A stretch of DNA of 63,765 nucleotides, counting the filler. It is 9 parts of 9 records of this genome, joined end to end, with 100 filler letters (N's around TTAATTAATTAA, not from the genome) between each part and the next. Parts side by side here need not be neighbours in the genome. Positions count along the whole stretch, not along the records: positions 22,926 to 31,368 come from SRR31156797_72225; 8 more parts are not named here. One strand, given 5' to 3'. Position numbers and translations under genes: made by a program. The notes beneath the pieces were generated by a model. It had not been told where the DNA came from and did not search any database. It worked only from the letters and a program-made list of their open reading frames with translations. This document shows positions 6,703 to 58,385 of this stretch, in pieces; position 1 is the first letter of the stretch; each line of letters starts with the position of its first letter.

Positions 6703-6802
6703 NNNNNNNNNNNNNNNNNNNNNNNNNNNNNNNNNNNNNNNNNNNNTTAATTAATTAANNNNNNNNNNNNNNNNNNNNNNNNNNNNNNNNNNNNNNNNNN
6801 NN
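6703..6802. other. Artificial contig spacer
   Basis: 44 N + TTAATTAATTAA (stops in all six frames) + 44 N. Confidence 0.99.
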
Positions 6803-12333: not shown

Positions 12334-12433
12334 NNNNNNNNNNNNNNNNNNNNNNNNNNNNNNNNNNNNNNNNNNNNTTAATTAATTAANNNNNNNNNNN
12401 NNNNNNNNNNNNNNNNNNNNNNNNNNNNNNNNN
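12334..12433. other. Artificial contig spacer
   Basis: N44-TTAATTAATTAA-N44. Confidence 0.99.
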
Positions 12434-22825: not shown

Positions 22826-22925
22826 NNNNNNNNNNNNNNNNNNNNNNNNNNNNNNNNNNNNNNNNNNNNTTAATTAATTAANNNNNNNNNNNNNNNNNNN
22901 NNNNNNNNNNNNNNNNNNNNNNNNN
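22826..22925. other. Artificial contig spacer
   Basis: N44-TTAATTAATTAA-N44. Confidence 0.99.
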
Positions 22926-23005: not shown

Positions 23006-24070
23006 ATGAAGAAATCTATTTTCTTGCTTCTCTTTCCCCTCCTTCTTATGTTGGGAGCCTGCGAAAAAAAAACAAATGAATCCACAACCTTTGAAAAAAC
23101 AGCCGAAGTGCCCGAGGCTGTTGAAGCCGAAGCGAAGAGCCTGATCGTCTACTGCTACGACTCGTTCGCCTCCGAATGGGGCCCCGGCCCCGTTCTGGTC
23201 GAGAAATTTACAGAGCAGACAGGCATCGCCGTCGAACTGAAAGCTCCGGGAGACGCGGTGACCGTGCTCTCCAGGGTCATCCTCGATAAAGAGGCTCCCA
23301 CGGGAGATCTCCTGATCGGCCCCGATAACAACCTGTTGGCCCGTGCCCTTGCGGAGGGTGTGCTGGAGCCCTACGACGCCCCCGCGCTGAAGGATATCGC
23401 TCCCGAACTGAGATTCGACGAAACCAACAGCCTGATCCCCTTCGACTGGGGCTACTTCGCCATCTGCTACGATTCGGAGAAGCTGGAGAATCCTCCCTCC
23501 TCACTGGAAGATCTGACGAAGCCCGAATTCGCCAAATCCCTGGTCCTGATGGATCCCCGGACCTCCAGTCCCGGCATGGGCTTTCTGCTCTGGACCCGGG
23601 CCGTCTACGGGGACGACTACCTTGAGTACTGGCAGCGCCTGGCGCCCTCGGTCCTCACGGTTACCGAAAGCTGGAGCAACGGCTACGGCCTTTTCACCAG
23701 CGGGGAGGCCCCCCTGGTTCTCAGCTACTCCACCAGTCCCGTCTACCACAAGATGTGGGAGGAGACCGAGCGCTACAAGGCCCTGGAGTTCGCCGAGGGC
23801 AACTACCTGCAGGTGGAAGGTGTCGGCGTGATCAAGGGCGCCCCCAACCGGGATGCCGCACGAGCCTTCATCGACTACATGCTCTCTCCCGAAGGACAGG
23901 GCATCATCGCCTCCAGCAATATCATGATGCCCGCCGTGGGAAGCACCGAGCTCCCCGAGGCCTTCGACATGGCCTTTATCTCATCCAATCCCCGTCTCCT
24001 GGACAAAGAGGAGATCGCCGCCCACGGAGATGAGTGGGTTCAGGACTGGGTGGAGAACGCGGGGCTCTGA
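23006..24070 (+). CDS. thiB: Thiamine ABC transporter substrate-binding lipoprotein
   Basis: Lipobox LGAC; YDSFASEWGPGP, DPRTSSPG, LSYSTSP and YLQVE. Confidence 0.92.
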   Translation: MKKSIFLLLFPLLLMLGACEKKTNESTTFEKTAEVPEAVEAEAKSLIVYCYDSFASEWGPGPVLVEKFTEQTGIAVELKAPGDAVTVLSRVILDKEAPTGDLLIGPDNNLLARALAEGVLEPYDAPALKDIAPELRFDETNSLIPFDWGYFAICYDSEKLENPPSSLEDLTKPEFAKSLVLMDPRTSSPGMGFLLWTRAVYGDDYLEYWQRLAPSVLTVTESWSNGYGLFTSGEAPLVLSYSTSPVYHKMWEETERYKALEFAEGNYLQVEGVGVIKGAPNRDAARAFIDYMLSPEGQGIIASSNIMMPAVGSTELPEAFDMAFISSNPRLLDKEEIAAHGDEWVQDWVENAGL

Positions 24071-25758
24071 TGCCGAATACCAAGGGAAAGCTCCGGGGGG
24101 AGCTGCGCCTTCTCCCGGTCTTTCTGTTCCTGTCCCTGACCTTCTATCTCCCCGTATGCGTCCTCCTTGTAAGAGGGCTCCGGGGAGAGGACGGAGGATG
24201 GACCCTGGGCTGGTTGAGAGAGATATTGACCAGCCCTTATTACAGGCGCATCTTCGGGTTCACACTGAGCCAGGCCCTGATGAGCAGCCTGCTGTCCATC
24301 GTCGTGGCCCTCCCGGGCGCCTGGATCCTCTCCCATCTGAACTTTCCCGGCAAACGCTTCCTCAAGGCCCTGACCACCATACCGTTCATCCTGCCCTCCA
24401 TACTGGTGGTACTGGGGTTCATCCTCTTCTGGGGGCGCCAGGGCGTAGTGAACCGCACCCTTATGCTGCTGACCAGAGGGGACGAACCGGTCATTGACGT
24501 GCTCTACTCCTTCCGGGCCATCCTACTGGCCCATGTGTTCTACAACTTCCCCATTGCCCTGAGGCTGATCGGAGCCTGGTGGGAGGGGCTGGGGGGGAAC
24601 CAGCTGCAGGCGGCCCGGCTTCTGGGAGCTTCGGAGCGTAAAATTTTCAGGACCATAACCCTGCCCCAGCTGCTGCCGGGCATCCTGAGCGCCGGCAGCC
24701 TGATCTTCCTCTACTGTTTCATGAGCTTTGCGGTGGTCCTCGTTCTGGGAGGCGGACCGAGATGGTCGACCATGGAGGTGGAGGTATACCGCCTGATCAA
24801 GTACTCCCTGGATTTCGGACGAGGCGGGGCCCTGGCCCTGGTAGAGACGGCGGCGACCCTCTTCCTGAGCTGGTTCGTCATCCGCCGGGAAAGCGCCGCC
24901 ATTCAGCGGCAGAGCACCGGTCTGGAACGCCGGAACTGGACGATCCTCCCGCTCAGGGGCCGGCTCCTGATCCTGGCCTACCTTCTCTTCGTTCTGATCG
25001 TGATCATGGGCCCCATCATCACGGTCAGCTTCCATTCCTTCCTTGAGAAGATAAACAGAAGCGGCGACGCCCGGATCTCTCTTCGCTGGTACCGGGAGAT
25101 ACTGAGCGCTCCGGGGAGCCTGTCGGGAAACGCCCAACTCCTGTCCAGGGCCGTCAGGAACAGCCTCTTTCTGGGGCTGAGCACCGTGCTACTGACCCTG
25201 ACCCTGGGAGCCTACAGCGCCTGGCTGCTTTCCAGGGCCGGCTTCCGCTTCCCCGTGCTCACCGAAACCTTCCTCATGATGCCCATGGGGATCTCTTCGG
25301 TGGTCCTGGGAATGGGCTATCTCTGGCTGAGCCGGGGGAACAGACTCTCCCTGCTGCCGCCCAGGCTCTCCATCGTCCTGGCCCACAGCGTGATCGCCCT
25401 CCCCTTCGTGCTCAGGAGTCTCACCCCCGCCATGAAGCGGATAAGGCAGAGCCTCCTGGACGCCTCCCGGCTCATGGGGGCGGGAGGGGTAAAGCAGTTC
25501 CTTACGGTCGAACTGCCCCTGATCCGTCCCGGCCTGATCGCCGGGGCCGCCTTCGCCATGGCCATCTCCCTGGGAGAGATAAACGCCACCCTGATCCTGT
25601 CGGACGCGGGGGTGCCCACCATACCCATCGCCATCCTGAGGCTGATCGGGACCTATAAGTTCTCCAGCGCCTGCGCCCTGGGAACCATCCTTATCCTTAT
25701 ATGCCTGGGGGCGTTCCTTCTGATCGACGCCTTTGAAAGGCGGGAGGAGAATTCATGA
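24070..25758 (+). CDS. thiP: Thiamine ABC transporter permease (two BPD_transp domains)
   Basis: LAHVFYNFP, AARLLGA, FLYCFMSF and AISLGE; TGATG overlap with thiB. Confidence 0.9.
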   Translation: MPNTKGKLRGELRLLPVFLFLSLTFYLPVCVLLVRGLRGEDGGWTLGWLREILTSPYYRRIFGFTLSQALMSSLLSIVVALPGAWILSHLNFPGKRFLKALTTIPFILPSILVVLGFILFWGRQGVVNRTLMLLTRGDEPVIDVLYSFRAILLAHVFYNFPIALRLIGAWWEGLGGNQLQAARLLGASERKIFRTITLPQLLPGILSAGSLIFLYCFMSFAVVLVLGGGPRWSTMEVEVYRLIKYSLDFGRGGALALVETAATLFLSWFVIRRESAAIQRQSTGLERRNWTILPLRGRLLILAYLLFVLIVIMGPIITVSFHSFLEKINRSGDARISLRWYREILSAPGSLSGNAQLLSRAVRNSLFLGLSTVLLTLTLGAYSAWLLSRAGFRFPVLTETFLMMPMGISSVVLGMGYLWLSRGNRLSLLPPRLSIVLAHSVIALPFVLRSLTPAMKRIRQSLLDASRLMGAGGVKQFLTVELPLIRPGLIAGAAFAMAISLGEINATLILSDAGVPTIPIAILRLIGTYKFSSACALGTILILICLGAFLLIDAFERREENS

Positions 25759-26807
25759 AACTGGAAATCAAAGAGCTGGAACTGACCCTGGGGGAGTTCC
25801 GGCTGAACTGCGAACTCTCTCTCCCTTCGGGCCGCCTGATCACACTGCTCGGCCCCAGCGGATGCGGAAAGACCTCCCTTCTCAAATCGGTGGCGGGTCT
25901 TCACTCCCTTGACGACGGGCGCATTGTTCTGGGTGAGAGGGATATCAGCGCCCTCGATCCCCGGCAGAGGAAGATCGGCATGGTCTTTCAGGACTACGCC
26001 CTCTTCCCCCATATGTCGGTCAGGAAGAATATCTGTTACGGCATGTCCCTGAAGAGGGACGCCGCTCTGGCCCGCTGCCGCGAGCTGCTGGAGCTGGTGG
26101 AGCTCACGGGCTTTGATGAGAGGATGCCCGAGGAGCTGTCAGGGGGAGAGAAGCAGCGGGTGGCCCTGGCCCGGGCCCTGGCCTCGGAGCCGGATCTTCT
26201 CCTTCTGGACGAGCCCTTGAGCGCCCTGGACGCCAGGCTGCGCCGCATCCTTCGCCGTCAGATAAGGGAGATTCAAAACAAGACAGGCATCACGACCCTC
26301 TACGTTACCCATGACCAGGAGGAGGCCATGGCCATATCGGACTGGATCGTCCTGATGGACCGGGGCCGGGTCAGCCAGTGCGGCAGCCCGGAAGAGCTTT
26401 ACGCCCGCCCGGCCAACGCCTTTGCGGGTCGCTTTATCGGCAATGCCAACATGATCCCCGTTGACAGCTGCGAGTCGCTGCCCGACGGCGGCATACGCAT
26501 ATCCAGCGGATTGGGGGAGCACAGCCTTCCCCCCCGGGCCGCCGCTACCTCTCCGCAAGAGGGACAGAGCGGTGGCTTTCTCTACTTTCGCCCCGAGGAC
26601 TGCCGGCTGATTGAGTCTCCCGGCAGCGGCGGCATCGGAGGAGAGGGAGAGATCATCTACCGCGAATACGGCGGCGACTTCCAGATCCTGGAGCTCAGGT
26701 CGGGAGATGAGCTTGTGCGTATCAAGGCTCCCGCCGACCATCCCGTGTCCCGGGGACAGCGCCAGAGCTGGTCCGTCAGGCCGGAAGACTGCAGCTACCT
26801 GCTCTGA
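25755..26807 (+). CDS. thiQ: Thiamine ABC transporter ATPase
   Basis: GPSGCGKT, LSGGEKQR, LLDEP and VTHDQEEA. Confidence 0.85.
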   Translation: MKLEIKELELTLGEFRLNCELSLPSGRLITLLGPSGCGKTSLLKSVAGLHSLDDGRIVLGERDISALDPRQRKIGMVFQDYALFPHMSVRKNICYGMSLKRDAALARCRELLELVELTGFDERMPEELSGGEKQRVALARALASEPDLLLLDEPLSALDARLRRILRRQIREIQNKTGITTLYVTHDQEEAMAISDWIVLMDRGRVSQCGSPEELYARPANAFAGRFIGNANMIPVDSCESLPDGGIRISSGLGEHSLPPRAAATSPQEGQSGGFLYFRPEDCRLIESPGSGGIGGEGEIIYREYGGDFQILELRSGDELVRIKAPADHPVSRGQRQSWSVRPEDCSYLL

Positions 26808-26948
26808 GTGAGGCATGATGAGGTCCAGGATACTTACAGCTCAAACGATAGTACTGTAAGGACATGGCGGATCGATCATAGGAAGATGGTATAGAAATTG
26901 ACCGGAAGATGGCTTTGAAACATTGTTTTCAGAGCTGAAAGCGTTCCC

Positions 26949-27013
26949 TTGACAAACACTTTTCCTTCGTATTCAATGGAAATCATTAAAAAAATACTTT
27001 CAATTCTATTGAA
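26949..27013 (+). promoter_or_regulatory. BCCT promoter with a downstream operator-like palindrome
   Basis: TTGACA-N17-TTCAAT, then TTCAAT-TCT-ATTGAA at 26999-27013. Confidence 0.5.
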
Positions 27014-27034
27014 TGACTCTCAAGGAGAACTCAC

Positions 27035-28666
27035 ATCAACTCTCAAAGACTCAAAACGAAGTACCTGGATATCCATCCCATAGTCTTCTTTTGTTCCGCC
27101 ATCGCCATCATCGGCTTCGTCGTCCTTTCCGTATTCTTCAACAGCACAATCGGCGATTTCTTCCCGGCCCTGCTCAACGGTATATCAACCAATACGGGCT
27201 GGTTTTTCACCCTGATCATCAATATCGTCCTGCCCTTTATCCTCTATCTGATGTTCAGTCAGTACGGCAACATCAGGCTGGGGGGAGACGACGCGGAACC
27301 CGATTTCAGCACCCTCAGCTGGTTCTCCATGCTTTTTTCCGCGGGAATCGGTATAGGCCTTCTTTTCTACGGCGTGGCCGAGCCCATGTTCCATTACCTC
27401 TACCGCCCCATCCCCTCGGACAGTCCCGCCGAGGCTGCCCGGGTCGCCATGCAGTTCACCTTCATGCACTGGGGGCTCCAGCCCTGGGCCATCTACGCCC
27501 TGGTTTCCCTGGCCCTGGCCTTCTTCAGCTTCAATAAGAACCAGCCCCTTTCCATCCGCTCCATCTTCTATCCCCTTCTGGGAGACAGGATCTACGGCTT
27601 GTGGGGAAATGTGATCGATATCCTGGCCACGGTGGCCACCCTTTTCGGCGTCGCCACCTCCCTGGGATACGGGGTGCAGCAGATCAACGCCGGCCTGAAT
27701 CATCTTTTCGGCCTGGAGCAGAGCGCCGTGGTTCAGCTGGTTCTGATCGCCGGCATTACGGCCATTGCCACCGTATCGGTTGTGAAGGGTCTGGACGCGG
27801 GCATCCGCAAGCTCTCGGAACTGAATATCTGGCTGGCGGCCCTGCTGCTCCTTTTCGTTTTCGTCTGCGGGCCGACCCTCTTCATCCTGAACGGCTTCCT
27901 GGAAAATATCGGGGCCTATCTGCAGGACCTGCCCCGGCTCTCTACCTGGAACGAAACCCTGGAGAACACACACTGGCAGAACGGCTGGACCGTATTCTAC
28001 TGGGCCTGGTGGGTGTCCTGGTCTCCCTTTGTGGGGATGTTTATCGCACGCATATCACGGGGAAGAACCATAAGGGAATTCCTGATGGGCGTCCTGACCG
28101 TTCCCACGCTGGTCACCTTCCTCTGGCTGACCGTATTCGGCAACTCCGCCATCTACCTGGAGCTCTTCAAAGACCTGAACTTTGCCGAAAAAGTCACCGC
28201 CGATATCCCCCTGTCACTCTTCCTGTTGCTGGAGAATCTCCCCCTGGCCCAGGTGACGCCCATTCTGGGAGTTCTGGTCATCATTAGCTTCTTCGTCACC
28301 TCCTCCGACTCGGGCTCCATGGTCATCGATATCATCACCGCCGGCGGGAATCCCGACCCTCCCGTTCCCCAGCGTCTGTTCTGGGCGATCCTCGAGGGGG
28401 TCGTAGCGGGGGCGCTGCTCCTCAGCGGAGGCCTTCAGGCCCTTCAGTCCGCCGTCGTAGCCACGGGCCTTCCCTTCGGCGTGGTGCTCATCATCCTCTG
28501 CTTCAGCCTGAAGAAGGGACTGAACGAGTACACGGGAGCCCAGACCTTCAGCCTGAAACAGGGCAAAACCAAGGCCCGGCGCTTTGAGATCGGCAGCGCC
28601 GAAGTTCCACAGGTCGTCTTCGCCAAAAAGAAGAGGAACAGAAAACCGGAGGCGGAAGATGTATAG
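27035..28666 (+). CDS. BCCT family (betaine/choline/carnitine) transporter with a probable ATC start
   Basis: WFSMLFSAGIGIGL, HWGLQPW, WTVFYWAWW and TSSDS. The frame is open upstream of ATG 27251 and encodes the missing N-terminal TMs (YLDIHPIVFF...GWFF). Confidence 0.9.
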   Translation: MNSQRLKTKYLDIHPIVFFCSAIAIIGFVVLSVFFNSTIGDFFPALLNGISTNTGWFFTLIINIVLPFILYLMFSQYGNIRLGGDDAEPDFSTLSWFSMLFSAGIGIGLLFYGVAEPMFHYLYRPIPSDSPAEAARVAMQFTFMHWGLQPWAIYALVSLALAFFSFNKNQPLSIRSIFYPLLGDRIYGLWGNVIDILATVATLFGVATSLGYGVQQINAGLNHLFGLEQSAVVQLVLIAGITAIATVSVVKGLDAGIRKLSELNIWLAALLLLFVFVCGPTLFILNGFLENIGAYLQDLPRLSTWNETLENTHWQNGWTVFYWAWWVSWSPFVGMFIARISRGRTIREFLMGVLTVPTLVTFLWLTVFGNSAIYLELFKDLNFAEKVTADIPLSLFLLLENLPLAQVTPILGVLVIISFFVTSSDSGSMVIDIITAGGNPDPPVPQRLFWAILEGVVAGALLLSGGLQALQSAVVATGLPFGVVLIILCFSLKKGLNEYTGAQTFSLKQGKTKARRFEIGSAEVPQVVFAKKKRNRKPEAEDV

Positions 28667-29345
28667 TTCCATTAGTCAGAAATTCTCGGGAGGCTGCTTC
28701 CTTCTGGTCAGGAAAAAGAAAGACACCATATTCTTTCTGGGAACAGCCTTTCTGGTCAACGACAACGGCTACCTCCTGACCGCAAGCCATCTGCTGGAGA
28801 GGGATCATGAAAACCTGATGGTGGCGCTGCCCCAGAAGCCAGATGAGTTCACCCCCCTTTCCCTGGAGAGTTTCCCGGCCCTTCCGGTTGAGGTAAAACA
28901 GGCCGACAGGGTACACAACACGGCGCTGCTGAAGCTGGTCCGTCCCCTGGGCATCGATACCCCCGACCATCTGCTCAGTTCCGGAGACTCTGTCTCCCTG
29001 GGTAACAGCGTCCTCTGCCTCGGATTCCCCTTCGGTCACCAGGACCTCTACAACCTGGCTGTGATGCGGGGGATCGTCAGCTCCAAGCTGCGCCACAAGA
29101 ACGGAACCAATCTGATTATGATAGACTCGGTGCTCCACGACGGCATGGCGGGAGGCCCTATGGTGAGCAGGGATGAGGAGCGTGTTATCGGCATCCTGAC
29201 GGGCCGCTTCTCCCCGGACGAAGACGACGAAGAGTATCTGGCCGAGGGGCCGTCGCTCCCCGACTTCGAAACCAATTTCAGCTACGGGGTTTCCATCGAG
29301 TACGGCCTGTCCCTGCTTGAAAAAGAGGATCAGGAGATTATCTGA
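28659..29345 (+). CDS. Trypsin-like peptidase domain protein with a degenerate catalytic triad
   Basis: GTAFLV...YLLTASH, LGFPFG and GIVS are HtrA-like, but NTALLK replaces DxALLK and GMAGGP replaces GNSGGP. Confidence 0.82.
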   Translation: MYSSISQKFSGGCFLLVRKKKDTIFFLGTAFLVNDNGYLLTASHLLERDHENLMVALPQKPDEFTPLSLESFPALPVEVKQADRVHNTALLKLVRPLGIDTPDHLLSSGDSVSLGNSVLCLGFPFGHQDLYNLAVMRGIVSSKLRHKNGTNLIMIDSVLHDGMAGGPMVSRDEERVIGILTGRFSPDEDDEEYLAEGPSLPDFETNFSYGVSIEYGLSLLEKEDQEII

Positions 29346-29379
29346 AATAATACATTGACCGGGTAAAGATCGAAGCCTA

Positions 29380-29871
29380 TCAGGCCATGCCGTAGGGCAG
29401 ATGGGGCGTCATCATCCTCTTGGCCGCCAGCTCCACCGCGTCCACGATAGTCTGATAACCGGTGCAGCGGCACAGATTGCCCCTCATGGCCTTTCGAATG
29501 GCCTCCCTGTCGGGTTCGGGATTCTTGTGCAGCAGGTCCAGGGCCTGCATGATCATGCCCGGCGTACAGAAACCGCATTGCACCGCTCCCGCATCGATAA
29601 AGGCCTGCTGCAGGGGATGGAGGGATCCGTCCTCCCGGGCCAGGCCCTCGATGGTAAGGACCTCTCCCTCCAGAACCTTCTTCACAGGGGTACGGCAGGA
29701 GCGGACGGCCTTGTGATTGACCAGCACCGTACAGGCGCCGCAGGTCCCTTCCCCGCATCCGTTCTTGACCCCTGTCAGCTTCAGTTCCTGACGCAGATAG
29801 TTCAGGAGAGTCATCTGTTCCTGTGCGGGTGTCAGTTCATATTCTATTCCATTAACGGTGACGCGGCTCAT
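29380..29871 (-). CDS. (2Fe-2S)-binding small subunit, CoxS/XdhC family
   Basis: [18 protein letters not shown] and GNLCRCTGY. Confidence 0.92.
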
Positions 29872-31368
29872 TCCGGCTTCTCCTTTCGGGCGGTTTTCTT
29901 ATCGCTGGTCTTCCGATCCACCCCTTCCGTCTCTTTCAGTAGGCTCAGGTCCATGGGAAGGGAGGTGAAGCGCCGTCCCGTGGCGGCGTACAGGGCGTTG
30001 GCGATGGCCGGAGCGATGATCTCCAGGGCCGGTTCGCCGATCCCCTTCGTCCCCGTAGGCGACAGGGGATCGAAGTTCTCTATGATATGGGTCTCCATCT
30101 CGGGGACATCGGTCATCCTGGGAATCTTGTATTTCGAGAAGTTCAGAGAGAGGGCCCGCCCCTCTTCGTCGGTCAGGAACTTCTCGCTCAGGGCCATGCC
30201 CAGCCCCTGAACCACGCCGCCGTGAATCTGCCCCCTGACCAGGGGAGGGTTCACGGCCTTGCCTATATCATGGGAGGCCACGATGTTCAGAAGCCTGCAG
30301 CTTCCCTTGACCGGATCCACCTCCAGCTCCACCGCCTGGGAGCTGTAGACATAGGAGAAGTAGGCGTCTCCGTGTCCGTTCTCTTCATTCCAGGTCACCG
30401 GCGGCGCCTGAAAGCTGCCGAAGGCAAAGGGATACTCCCGGGCGAAGAACATCTTCTTCCCCGCCTCCTCCCAGCTCATGGACCTGTACGCCGTGCCGTA
30501 GATCCTCCCGTCCCGGAACTCTATCTGCTCCGGCTTCTCCGCGAGGTCGGGCTGGAGCACCCGGGACATGATGGACTTGAGCTTGTCGGCGGCATCCTTC
30601 AGGGCGCCCCCGCCCATCATGGTCCCCCGGGAGGCCACAGTGGTTCCCCCGTCGGGTATGGTGGCGGTGGAAGACTGCTGGTAGTGGATCTTCTCAACGG
30701 GAACCCCCAGCATCTCGGCGGCCATCATCATCATCGCCGCCGTGGAGCCCTGGCCGTTCTCAAAGACAGCCGTATCCACCAGGATAGAGCCGTCGAACTG
30801 CACATGAATGGTGGCGCAGCAGAAATCCATGCCCTCGGCCCCCAGGCTGCATCCCCTGTAGGAGGAGGCCATTCCGATGCCGTACAGCTTGCCCCCTTCC
30901 GGGGCCTTGCCGAAGGAGCTCTTCATCCTTTTCTCTTCGTATCCTATGGACGAGGCGGTCTTCTCCATAACCTCGACCAGACTGACCGTATGATCGTCCA
31001 GCTTCTGGCCCGTCACGGTCTCGCTGTCCTGTTTCACCGCGTTGATCCTGCGGATCTCCAGGGGGGAGATCCCCAGTTTATGGGCGGCCATATCCATGAT
31101 CTGCTCGAAGGCGAAGTTGGTCTGGGGCGAACCGAAGCCCCGCATAGCGCCGGAGAAAATGTTGTTCGTCGCCACGCCGTAAACGTCCGCCCGTATGTCC
31201 TTCAGCACATAGGGGCCGATGTTCTGGGCTGTGGAACGCCAGGTTGACCAGGGGGTGGTAGAGGTATAGGCCCCCGAATCGGCCAGGGTTCTGCTGATAA
31301 CCGAAACAAGACGCCCATCCTTCCGGAATCCGGCCTTGTACCACATCTTATAGGGATTCCGTTTGTAG
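29868..31368 (-). CDS. Xanthine dehydrogenase-family molybdopterin-binding subunit (5' truncated)
   Basis: GAMRGFGSPQ, GQG, TVASRG, GQIHGG and KGIGEP. Confidence 0.92.
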
Positions 31369-31468
31369 NNNNNNNNNNNNNNNNNNNNNNNNNNNNNNNN
31401 NNNNNNNNNNNNTTAATTAATTAANNNNNNNNNNNNNNNNNNNNNNNNNNNNNNNNNNNNNNNNNNNN
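31369..31468. other. Artificial contig spacer
   Basis: N44-TTAATTAATTAA-N44. Confidence 0.99.
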
Positions 31469-31469
31469 G

Positions 31470-33422
31470 CTGGAGGTTGAAGGAGGGGTAATTGGGGTCC
31501 TCAAGGTCGAAACTAAAATGCGCAAAATTGAGCCCGGCGGGGATGAAGAGTTTACCTACTTTAGCGACCAGGATGAACTTGTATTTGATTTGATTGCGAG
31601 ATGTGTGGCAATTGCCATCGAAAACTCCCGTTTGCTTGAATCCAAAAGGCTTTCTGAACAGATAAGCAAAAATCCGAACAACTTGCTGGTTGAGTTGCAC
31701 ACTTTTGTCAAGAGCCATTGGCAGGCCGAAAACACCCTGAAACAGGTGGCGGACCTGCTCAGGGGCAAACGCGACAACACCGCGACAATCATCGAAAACT
31801 ATGCCCGCTTGCTGGGAACTAATTTTTCAACCGACTCACTTAGGGCTATCCTCAACAATATTGGGCCGATGAAAGAATTGATGGCCGGCAGTGAAAAATT
31901 CTGCACACTCTACAACACTTTTGTTAATGCCATGACAGTACAGACGCCGGCTGACATATCCAGCTGCTGCTCAGCGAGTAACATACTGATGCTGAATGAT
32001 ATTGTGCGCGGTGGCGATGAGTATTTATACGAGGCCAGCACCTGCCTTAAAAACATCTATGATAGGATAGCTGCGATTTTCCGCAATGAGCCGTACCATG
32101 TGAACGAAACAACGCCTTATGCTGAGGCCATCGCCACTCTCAAGGATTCCCTCAATGTCGATTTGGAGGCTGTTTCCCAACCCGAAAGACAGATCATCAA
32201 ACGCATTCTCAAACATTGGTTGAAAGCTATTCAAAAGTCCCATCAGGCCTTTCGCAGGGTACAAAATCCCTATATTGCAGGACCGGCCATAAAGCCGATC
32301 AAGGGCGGACTTTTTTTCGGCCGAAGGGATATTTTTCAGTGGGTAGCGGAAACCATCATCAGCGGGGATCAAAAAAACATTCTACTGCTGCATGGCCAGA
32401 GACGAATGGGAAAGACCTCTATCCTATTGCAACTCAATGACGGTGAGATGGGAGCGCAACTGCGAAACAGGAAAGACAATCCCGTGCTCCCCGTATTCAT
32501 CGACCTGCAGGGTTGCGGGGATAATACCGCCACCTTCATTGCCTTCATCATATCCAGAACAGACCAGAAACTTCGAGATATGAAGTTTGTAAGCTACAAT
32601 ATTGATCCGCCAATTAAAGAAGAAATTGCGGCGTCTCCTTTTCAGACATTTAACGATTACATGGAAAGGGTCAATACCATCGTTAGCCCTAATTTGCTGG
32701 TATTGATGCTGGATGAATTCGAGCAAATCGATATTCTTGTAAAGAAAAAAAAGGTAGATACTGGAATCTATTCAACCCTGCGATTCCAAACCCATCTTTC
32801 AAATGTCACTTATATCCTTGCTGGCAGTCATTCGCTTGAAGAGTTGTCCGGAGAATATATTGAAAATTTCAACATTGCGCGTCACAAAGAGGTGGGGTTC
32901 ATGAACCACCGTGATGCCAACGATCTTATCAAGCAGCCTGTTCACGGCCAGGTCGTTTACGAGGAGATGGCCGCAAAGTACCTCGTCCGCATCACCAATG
33001 GTCATCCTTTTCTAATTCAGCAACTTTGCCACGGCATTATCGATGAGATGAACCGTCGTGGAGAAAGCAATTATATCACTTCCGGGAATGTGGATTTGGC
33101 CATAAAGCGTACTATAGAAGACAGTACCCATATCCATTTTTACGATACCTGGCGGCAATCAACAGAAAATGAATTAAAAATGATTAGGTATATCGCCAGC
33201 AATTTGAACAATCAATCAAAGGGAATGTCATGTACCACTCTTGAAGAGGAGTTGTTATTACCCACCGACGATGTTGATTCTACTTTAAAAAAGCTAAATA
33301 AACGCCACCTAATCTCGCACCTACCAACTGATGCGGCTACACCAGAACAACCCATGAAATATCAACCAACCATCCTCCTATTTTATCATTGGGTAAACCG
33401 GCATTTCCCGAATGCCAGATAA
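31470..33422 (+). CDS. GAF domain + STAND-type P-loop NTPase + winged-helix-like tail (5' truncated)
   Basis: The frame is open from the contig edge. VIGVLKVE...FSDQDELVFDLIARCVAIAIENSRL is a GAF end. NTPase motifs: NPYIAG...FFGR, Walker A GQRRMGKT, Walker B LMLDEFE, TNGHPFLIQ. Confidence 0.8.
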   Translation: MEVEGGVIGVLKVETKMRKIEPGGDEEFTYFSDQDELVFDLIARCVAIAIENSRLLESKRLSEQISKNPNNLLVELHTFVKSHWQAENTLKQVADLLRGKRDNTATIIENYARLLGTNFSTDSLRAILNNIGPMKELMAGSEKFCTLYNTFVNAMTVQTPADISSCCSASNILMLNDIVRGGDEYLYEASTCLKNIYDRIAAIFRNEPYHVNETTPYAEAIATLKDSLNVDLEAVSQPERQIIKRILKHWLKAIQKSHQAFRRVQNPYIAGPAIKPIKGGLFFGRRDIFQWVAETIISGDQKNILLLHGQRRMGKTSILLQLNDGEMGAQLRNRKDNPVLPVFIDLQGCGDNTATFIAFIISRTDQKLRDMKFVSYNIDPPIKEEIAASPFQTFNDYMERVNTIVSPNLLVLMLDEFEQIDILVKKKKVDTGIYSTLRFQTHLSNVTYILAGSHSLEELSGEYIENFNIARHKEVGFMNHRDANDLIKQPVHGQVVYEEMAAKYLVRITNGHPFLIQQLCHGIIDEMNRRGESNYITSGNVDLAIKRTIEDSTHIHFYDTWRQSTENELKMIRYIASNLNNQSKGMSCTTLEEELLLPTDDVDSTLKKLNKRHLISHLPTDAATPEQPMKYQPTILLFYHWVNRHFPNAR

Positions 33423-36641: not shown

Positions 36642-36741
36642 NNNNNNNNNNNNNNNNNNNNNNNNNNNNNNNNNNNNNNNNNNNNTTAATTAATTAANNN
36701 NNNNNNNNNNNNNNNNNNNNNNNNNNNNNNNNNNNNNNNNN
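36642..36741. other. Artificial contig spacer
   Basis: N44-TTAATTAATTAA-N44. Confidence 0.99.
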
Positions 36742-42667: not shown

Positions 42668-42767
42668 NNNNNNNNNNNNNNNNNNNNNNNNNNNNNNNNN
42701 NNNNNNNNNNNTTAATTAATTAANNNNNNNNNNNNNNNNNNNNNNNNNNNNNNNNNNNNNNNNNNNN
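42668..42767. other. Artificial contig spacer
   Basis: N44-TTAATTAATTAA-N44. Confidence 0.99.
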
Positions 42768-51729: not shown

Positions 51730-51829
51730 NNNNNNNNNNNNNNNNNNNNNNNNNNNNNNNNNNNNNNNNNNNNTTAATTAATTAANNNNNNNNNNNNNNN
51801 NNNNNNNNNNNNNNNNNNNNNNNNNNNNN
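51730..51829. other. Artificial contig spacer
   Basis: N44-TTAATTAATTAA-N44. Confidence 0.99.
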
Positions 51830-58285: not shown

Positions 58286-58385
58286 NNNNNNNNNNNNNNN
58301 NNNNNNNNNNNNNNNNNNNNNNNNNNNNNTTAATTAATTAANNNNNNNNNNNNNNNNNNNNNNNNNNNNNNNNNNNNNNNNNNNN
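58286..58385. other. Artificial contig spacer
   Basis: N44-TTAATTAATTAA-N44. Confidence 0.99.

Follow-up and report, generated by a model that had tools for sequence, protein, structure and literature searches.

A BCCT-family transporter gene paired with an HtrA-fold pseudoprotease gene: comparative genomics of a candidate osmolyte-uptake module

Carriers of the BCCT family are textbook single-component osmolyte transporters, and their regulation is ascribed to their own termini. In the stretch of 63,765 nucleotides analysed here (the window, in which nine contigs are chained), the contig SRR31156797_72225 (22926-31368) carries a gene of this family (27035-28666, plus strand). Its end is overlapped by a gene on the same strand (28659-29345) for a protein of 228 amino acids, termed PP in the following, which has the fold of the HtrA proteases without their catalytic serine. 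Why would a transporter of this kind be encoded together with a dead protease? The answer favoured here, to which we give about an even chance, is that the two proteins form a dedicated osmolyte-uptake module, in which the dead protease holds the tail of the transporter and controls its activity or stability. Comparative genomics supports this interpretation in part. It shows the fold, the old loss of the triad, purifying selection, the gene linkage and the co-occurrence of PP with the transporter tail, while binding, its site and its regulatory effect are inferred.

The transporter and its dead partner protein

The BCCT gene has 543 codons and ends with the stop codon TAG at 28664-28666. Its product matches PF02028 over nearly the whole profile (Pfam; positions 1-484 of 485, E 1.8e-196, 653.8 bits against a cut-off of 27) and passes TIGR00842 (547.5 bits, cut-off 407.55). 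The top NCBIfam model was NF047988, the equivalog for glycine betaine uptake by BCCT carriers, yet its 586.7 bits lie below the cut-off of 650. We therefore infer a betaine-like substrate without assigning it. The membrane core was modelled by AlphaFold2 (AF2) with a predicted local distance difference test score (pLDDT) of about 90.

The start codon of the PP gene (ATG, 28659-28661) overlaps the BCCT stop codon by 8 nt, as read in a first-pass annotation made from the sequence alone. A Shine-Dalgarno sequence, GGAGG, was read directly at 28648-28652 (plus strand), 6 nt before this ATG and within the BCCT coding sequence. PP matches the Trypsin_2 family (Pfam PF13365) at residues 28-179 (E 1.1e-16, 62.3 bits, cut-off 27.6). 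The AF2 model (pLDDT 84.1, predicted template modelling score 0.85) consists of a single HtrA-type protease domain. Its N-terminus forms a helix and a barrel strand that are part of the fold, which agrees with the earlier statement that a signal peptide is missing, and PP is probably cytoplasmic. Foldseek returned HtrA-family domains (E about 1e-12, template modelling score, TM, 0.66-0.71), for instance MucD 8k2y (E 3e-13, TM 0.69). Pfam detected no PDZ domain in PP, whose 228 residues correspond to one protease domain only.

The active site of this domain is degenerate. In phmmer alignments to the structures of MucD, DegP and HtrA1, His44 (codon CAT, 28788-28790, plus strand) occupies the position of the catalytic His, which is kept. 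Asn87 (AAC, 28917-28919, plus strand) aligns with the Asp of the motif D-[IV]-A-[VL]-L-K, and Ala164 (GCG, 29148-29150, plus strand), within G-M-A-G-G-P, with the nucleophilic Ser. Of the three residues of an active S1 peptidase, PP thus has the His and lacks the Asp and the Ser, and the exchanges of Asp for Asn and Ser for Ala proposed in the first-pass annotation were confirmed. Likewise, all motifs quoted there were found, in PP (GTAF, LTASH, LGFPFG, GIVS, GGP, VIGI, HNTALLK, DGMAGGP and DEDDEE) as well as in the transporter tail (KKKRNRK). The idea that the acidic DEDDEE loop pairs with the basic tail is not supported. The loop is not conserved, the family consensus at this place being P-x-E-D-G-G-D-F, and it falls into the only disordered part of the AF2 model (residues 188-202). 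It was rejected as a feature of the family.

Is PP a decaying gene or an established pseudoenzyme? A word-index search gave 62 relatives of about 227 amino acids, 42 of which were aligned, fragments and near-duplicates being left out. A scan of one genome per species gave 92 encoding stretches; the best 80 of these are the genome loci referred to below (L numbers), and together with the window they make up a set of 81 sequences. The hosts belong to Spirochaetota, Thermodesulfobacteriota, Pseudomonadota (Chromatiaceae and other Gammaproteobacteria), Verrucomicrobiota, Acidobacteriota and Hydrogenedentes. The His-Asp-Ser triad is present in none of the 81. The His position holds His in 74 sequences, Tyr in 3, Arg in 2, Phe in 1 and Gln in 1, and the Asp position holds Asp in 46 and Asn in 35. 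The nucleophile is replaced most often by Arg (26) or Ala (23), followed by Thr (14), Ile (11), Val (2), Cys (1) and Gln (1). Three sequences have Ser there, so that the GxSGGP motif, whose presence in close homologs the first-pass annotation would have taken as a sign of recent decay, occurs formally; yet each of these three carries Asn at the Asp position. In the oxyanion-hole loop (G-x-x-G-G-P), the glycines and the proline, among them G162, G165 and P167, are invariant in the family alignments.

A profile search of 1.84 billion representative sequences yielded only 44 clusters at E ≤ 1e-30. The top clusters are all dead, and relatives of the same size with an intact GNSGGP or GCSGGP motif come next (E 1e-40 to 1e-61). 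In a FastTree phylogeny of 150 rows, all BCCT-linked loci group together in a single clade (99 rows, local support 96) without any intact member. The intact proteins form a grade outside it, and the dead or intact label requires two changes on the tree. Moreover, the ratio of nonsynonymous to synonymous substitutions of PP is 0.02-0.19 in 16 close pairs, i.e., PP is under strong purifying selection. The missing triad, the all-dead clade and the low substitution ratio together rule out a recent decay of PP. They show that the loss of the triad extends over the whole clade, that the loss of catalysis is old and essentially single, and that PP is a pseudoenzyme. A second small dead group (P0090, P0099 and P0150, with F-D-N, N-G-V and E-G-N) stands beside the intact P0078, outside the BCCT-linked clade. 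This placement suggests an independent loss of catalysis.

Gene linkage and the transporter tail

Does the pairing with the transporter hold beyond the window? A BCCT gene lies upstream of the PP gene on the same strand in 78 of the 80 genome loci, which are spread over at least six phyla. In the two remaining loci, the sequence extends only 633 and 103 nt upstream, and they are hence uninformative. The pairing thus recurs far beyond chance, and the adjacency noticed in the window proved to be conserved. Both genes are complete in 74 loci, 32 of group A and 42 of group B, and the ATG of PP is found at the aligned position in every one of them.

Group A, to which the window belongs, comprises Spirochaetota and relatives of Desulfoluna, and has Asn at the Asp position. 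The two genes overlap by 8 nt in 24 of its loci and by 11 nt in 1, and a spacer of 20-21 nt is found in 7. In group B, the Asp is kept in all loci but L055 and L056, and the nucleophile is in most cases replaced by Arg, Ile or Thr. An insert of 0.9-1.2 kb separates BCCT and PP in 36 of the 42 loci of this group and is missing in 6. This insert is a gene for an OpuAC-type periplasmic binding protein (PF04069, E 2.5e-59). Clustering of the open reading frames (ORFs) of the 80 loci gave PP, BCCT and OpuAC (38 loci) as the only recurrent families; the next family occurs in 6 loci. The two-part system proposed in the first-pass annotation therefore describes the window and group A, whereas about half of the loci are three-part, with an OpuAC gene.

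OpuAC genes between BCCT and PP are found, for instance, at L034:5038-5958 and L046:4745-5971, and in 36 more loci. They form operons with the BCCT gene in which no ABC permease or ATPase gene occurs, and the same arrangement was seen beside the partner-less BCCT relatives L088 and L089. OpuAC and BCCT could constitute a binding-protein-assisted BCCT system, as judged from gene order.

The linkage is specific to one kind of transporter. Five genomes encode one PP each, and in these the linked BCCT is 63-77% identical to that of the window, while other BCCT paralogues reach at most 46%. The module is rare. A sample of 301 genomes from the phylum of genome G005 contained it once, in the genome at the centre of the sample, and a search with P0083 of a sample of 401 genomes from the phylum of G004 gave only three hits, all of the PP clade. 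The two new ones among the latter have the order BCCT-OpuAC-PP. Over 67 pairs of genes, the pairwise identities of BCCT and PP correlate with r = 0.87, which indicates co-inheritance as a unit, but not contact.

The PP-linked BCCTs form a subclade of their own, and their last helix is followed by a conserved C-terminal tail of about 45 residues. In the window, this cytoplasmic tail comprises residues 500-543 (28532-28663, plus strand; TGAQTFSLK..RRFEIGSAEVPQVVFAKKKRNRK..). The tail of group A reads approximately G-x-Q-T-F-S-V-K ... F-Q-I-E-S ... P-x-V-x-F-K-K-K, and that of group B reads G-Q-x-F-E-L ... P-T-F-G-R-R-R-F-W. Close relatives without a partner end early, e.g., with ...YVKKYGWDA. 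Tails of Chromatiaceae (L046, L049, L054, L057, L058, L060, L062, L064 and L073) continue for 40-80 residues past ...GRRQFW. These extensions are of low complexity and rich in Pro, Ala and Gly, and some contain FQIEG, which resembles the FQIES of group A.

A reverse test was performed with 80 metagenome loci, fetched by BCCT alignment alone and independent of the genome set. All three BCCTs which are 74-76% identical to that of the window have a PP gene. Among the seven with 60-66% identity, two are arranged as BCCT-OpuAC-PP. L089 consists of BCCT and OpuAC followed by a convergent membrane-protein gene, and L090 of BCCT alone; both also lack the tail. The sequence of L088 stops 264 nt past the OpuAC gene, with no PP within it, and L084 and L086 have no downstream sequence. 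No PP was found with any of the 70 metagenome BCCTs of at most 56% identity. The genome set alone was used to build hidden Markov models (HMMs) of both tail types, which were then run on the same 80 loci. They matched exactly the five PP-linked ones (L081-L083 at E 1e-21 to 1e-23, L087 at 2.8e-13 and L085 at 1.8e-6). For the 75 loci without PP, no score was better than E 0.2; in 66 of them, 700 nt or more of sequence are available downstream.

Despite this conservation of sequence, the AF2 model gives no secondary structure and a pLDDT below 50 for residues 503-543 of the tail. Such a combination would be expected of a segment that folds on a partner. A link between PP and the transporter tail is supported indirectly, by co-occurrence.

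A proposed tail-holding role and its alternatives

How could a protease without a nucleophile act on a transporter? The BCCT protein is an ordinary-looking secondary transporter of betaine type, with a tail of about 45 residues that is predicted to be disordered by itself. PP has kept the whole HtrA protease-domain fold, the glycines of the oxyanion loop included, without the nucleophile. In the proposed mechanism, its relic substrate groove would grip the tail like a substrate that cannot be cut. The groove is the most likely site, since the geometry of the oxyanion loop is the most conserved part of PP although catalysis is gone. The grip on the tail would then control the activity or the stability of the transporter, and translational coupling through the 8-nt overlap would have both proteins made together. 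The outcome may be gating, stabilisation or the input of a signal, which are not separable at this level. HtrA domains trimerise. BCCT carriers are trimers as well, as stated for BetP in a 2023 review of post-translational transporter control (PMC10710835). A BCCT-PP complex of 3:3 stoichiometry is speculation.

The transporter itself compares well with known carriers. It belongs to the same families (PF02028, TIGR00842) as BetP and BetT, and its cytoplasmic C-terminal extension is likewise the obvious regulatory handle. The C-terminal domain of BetP is helical; a long alpha-helical domain of this type is absent from the AF2 model of the window BCCT. In the covered part of the review mentioned above, control through its own C-terminal domain is the sole mode listed for BetP (PMC10710835). 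BetP and BetT, as far as that part describes them, are single-component carriers controlled by their own C-terminal domain, whereas the tail of the present family is helix-less, confined to a subclade and accompanied by a separate pseudoprotease gene. Full-text literature searches over freely accessible articles, judged by titles and the opening lines of abstracts, found no description of a BCCT carrier paired with a protease-fold partner; within that scope, the initial remark that no such partner is described stands.

The closest described parallel is MamO of the magnetosome system of magnetotactic bacteria, an HtrA-fold pseudoprotease fused to a TauE-like transporter domain (PMC4794232). According to the same source, the nucleophile of MamO is replaced by Thr and Gly193 by Glu, which blocks the oxyanion hole, and a di-His motif binds metal. 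Like MamO as described there, PP has a degenerate active site, a presumably non-catalytic role and an association with a transporter module. The two differ in that PP and its transporter are encoded by separate genes, PP lacks a signal peptide and would reside in the cytoplasm, its transporter belongs to the BCCT family, and the equivalent of Gly193 (G162) is invariant. The match to the MamO model NF040961 is weak (26.5 bits against a cut-off of 800, E 2e-6). A MamO-type context was not seen either, as Pfam finds no fused domain in PP and the neighbouring genes encode an ABC importer and a molybdenum hydroxylase. HtrA, DegP, DegS and MucD share the protease-domain fold and most structural motifs with PP, from which a signal peptide, a PDZ domain and the catalytic Ser are all missing. 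The score of PP with TIGR02037, the model of the HtrA/DegP Do family, is 38.9 bits, against a cut-off of 416.2.

Several observations weigh against a tail-holding, regulatory PP. The BCCTs of L089 and L090 are 60-62% identical to that of the window and have no PP, so the transporter core is not strictly PP-dependent. Correlated divergence and linkage would likewise arise between any two genes that share a mobile operon. The retention of His (74 of 81) and of Asp or Asn (81 of 81) could mean residual chemistry rather than pure binding. No natural fusion of BCCT and PP was found among longer proteins, which is weak evidence. Furthermore, contigs from RNA libraries reach only parts of the BCCT gene and give no evidence of co-transcription. 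In the metatranscriptome run X4, near-identical short contigs cover 27212-27412 and 27782-27963 only, and none spans the junction of the genes. One contig of 344 nt from run X3, a library of unknown kind, spans this junction (28385-28728).

A bolder version of the proposal makes the dead HtrA domain, possibly a trimer that matches the BCCT trimer, a "tail reader", which would capture the disordered tail as a pseudo-substrate and gate uptake as an obligate, third kind of BCCT regulator. In lineages with OpuAC, the module would be a tripartite, binding-protein-assisted BCCT, an architecture not described before. We consider this version doubtful. For the three-gene form only, TRAP and TTT systems offer a precedent, as they too combine a gene for a periplasmic solute-binding protein (SBP) with a secondary carrier in one operon, without ABC permease or ATPase. 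Here, however, the carrier is a BCCT, and the window itself has no SBP gene. To our knowledge, no BCCT carrier depends on a binding protein, and a search of the literature found no description of one.

Alternatively, PP may be a factor of stability or turnover, which shields the disordered tail from cytoplasmic or membrane proteases or serves as an adaptor for degradation when uptake must stop. A disordered, basic tail is a typical entry point for degradation. Small proteins that guard transporters from FtsH or expose them to it are known (PMC10710835), and the linkage and the co-occurrence with the tail fit this explanation equally well. Nothing in the present data separates it from a direct gate. 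The ORF clustering of the 80 loci gave no conserved protease gene nearby. We regard a turnover factor as unlikely, though the best placed of the competing explanations.

Somewhat less probable still is a sensor, i.e., a PP that perceives a signal in the cytoplasm, for example the accumulated osmolyte, K+ or a metal ion, which it relays to the transporter. MamO (PMC4794232) is an example of an HtrA-fold pseudoprotease with gained ligand binding, and several His positions are common in the PP consensus (H34, H44, H86, H104, H127 and H159). None of the additional His residues is invariant, however, and the window has Asn at position 34. Moreover, sensing is compatible with a tail-holding PP rather than exclusive of it.

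A protease of unusual mechanism, processing the tail or another substrate with His/Asp and a Thr, Ser or other nucleophile, is very unlikely. The residues retained at the His and Asp positions, the invariant oxyanion glycines, and the Thr (14) or Ser (3) at the nucleophile position would suit it. Against it, this position is occupied by Arg, Ala, Ile or Val in 62 of the 81 sequences, the members with Ser have Asn for Asp, and the full triad never occurs.

The origin of PP bears on the last explanation. Its nearest relatives in sequence outside the dead clade are S1 proteases of about 225 amino acids, likewise cytoplasmic, from plasmids and candidate defence systems, with the same length and the same N- and C-terminal motifs. 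In contrast to PP, they keep His-Asp-Ser (GNSGGP) and branch outside that clade. Intact relatives were named from records of Klebsiella, Salmonella, Acinetobacter, Mannheimia, Burkholderia and Pseudomonas. The one inspected lies on a mobilizable Klebsiella plasmid of 12.5 kb (NZ_CP058136.1), between a replication gene and a gene for a hypothetical protein of 165 amino acids, with no BCCT near. On this plasmid (L164, 3573-4743), the replication gene shares its end with the annotated serine protease gene, after which comes the hypothetical gene; protease and hypothetical gene form a two-gene unit that may correspond to the candidate PDC-M35 of PADLOC. PP itself matches the PADLOC model PDC-M35A nearly over its full length (residues 12-191, E 4.6e-23), and the protease domain of RT-Protease_XI also matches, while the window BCCT and the SBP of L034 match no PADLOC model. 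No description of the make-up of PDC-M35 was found in the literature. The PDC-M35A match is read here as homology to a protease component and not as membership in the system. PP probably descends from a small cytoplasmic protease carried by modules of mobile elements, which lost its nucleophile and came to be associated with a single lineage of BCCT carriers. The phyletic pattern implies horizontal transfer.

That BCCT and PP are only passengers of the same mobile cassette, with unrelated functions, PP being the relic of a plasmid- or defence-type protease module, would agree with the PADLOC matches, the intact plasmid relative and horizontal transfer, but it is the least probable explanation. 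Order and strand are kept in all 78 informative loci, even those with an SBP gene in between, and no examined genome has PP without BCCT. PP also co-occurs with the tail, BCCT and SBP have no PADLOC match, and the flanking genes are not conserved and include no recurrent family that would mark a mobile cassette.

Start codon, surroundings and meaning of the module

Where the transporter gene begins is a question of its own. Its reading frame opens at 27017, after a stop at 27014, and contains no ATG, GTG or TTG before 27251, from where the protein would lack its first two helices. Hence, the window BCCT has no canonical start upstream of the conserved DIHP motif. A Shine-Dalgarno sequence, AAGGAG, was read directly at 27022-27027 (plus strand), 7 nt before an ATC at 27035. 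From these two facts, the gene probably starts at the non-canonical ATC. The start at 27035 given in the first-pass annotation is reasonable as a coordinate, but the codon is ATC and not a canonical start. The same is seen in spirochaete relatives, in which a strong AGGAG is followed after 6-8 nt by ATC, ATT or ATA and no canonical codon precedes DIHP, whereas relatives of the Desulfoluna type start BCCT with ATG. The arrangement of AGGAG and ATC, ATT or ATA was also observed in L002, L003, L007, L008, L010, L011, L013, L017 and L019, and furthermore in L022-L025, L027, L028, L030, L053 and L081-L083. The unusual start codon may be a means of translational control of BCCT and, through coupling, of PP.

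On one side, a spacer or leader of 227 nt separates the BCCT gene from an ABC importer operon (23006-26807) for a solute-binding protein, a fused permease and an ATPase. On the other side, the PP gene is convergent with genes for the 2Fe-2S subunit (29380-29871, minus strand) and the molybdopterin subunit (29868-31346, minus strand, cut by the contig end) of a molybdenum hydroxylase. With these flanks, BCCT and PP constitute a two-gene unit of their own. An Rfam scan of 26750-29450 returned no RNA family at E ≤ 1, and thus no known riboswitch in the leader. A scan for promoters and terminators gave nothing that exceeded shuffled sequences.

The window strings separate contigs together, and genes that face each other across a linker are not adjacent in the organism itself. 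Each linker is artificial and consists of 44 N, TTAATTAATTAA and 44 N. Linkers lie at 6703-6802, 12334-12433, 22826-22925 and 31369-31468, and others of the same make-up at 36642-36741, 42668-42767, 51730-51829 and 58286-58385. On the next contig piece, a gene at 31518-33422 (plus strand) encodes a protein of 634 amino acids, with a weak match to the ATPase family AAA_22 as its sole hit. The G+C content is 45% there, compared to 57-62% on the contig of BCCT and PP. The protein may be a STAND-like NTPase from another genomic region.

If BCCT and PP do work together as proposed, this conserved and horizontally spreading module would represent a new mode of transporter control, exerted by a dead protease. 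It would, moreover, offer a clear example from bacteria of a pseudoenzyme that has been taken on as a subunit of a transporter. The three-gene form raises the further question of whether BCCT carriers can use a periplasmic binding protein. As Desulfoluna, Desulfofustis glycolicus, Thiorhodococcus and Halochromatium are cultured hosts, the module would offer a directly testable system.

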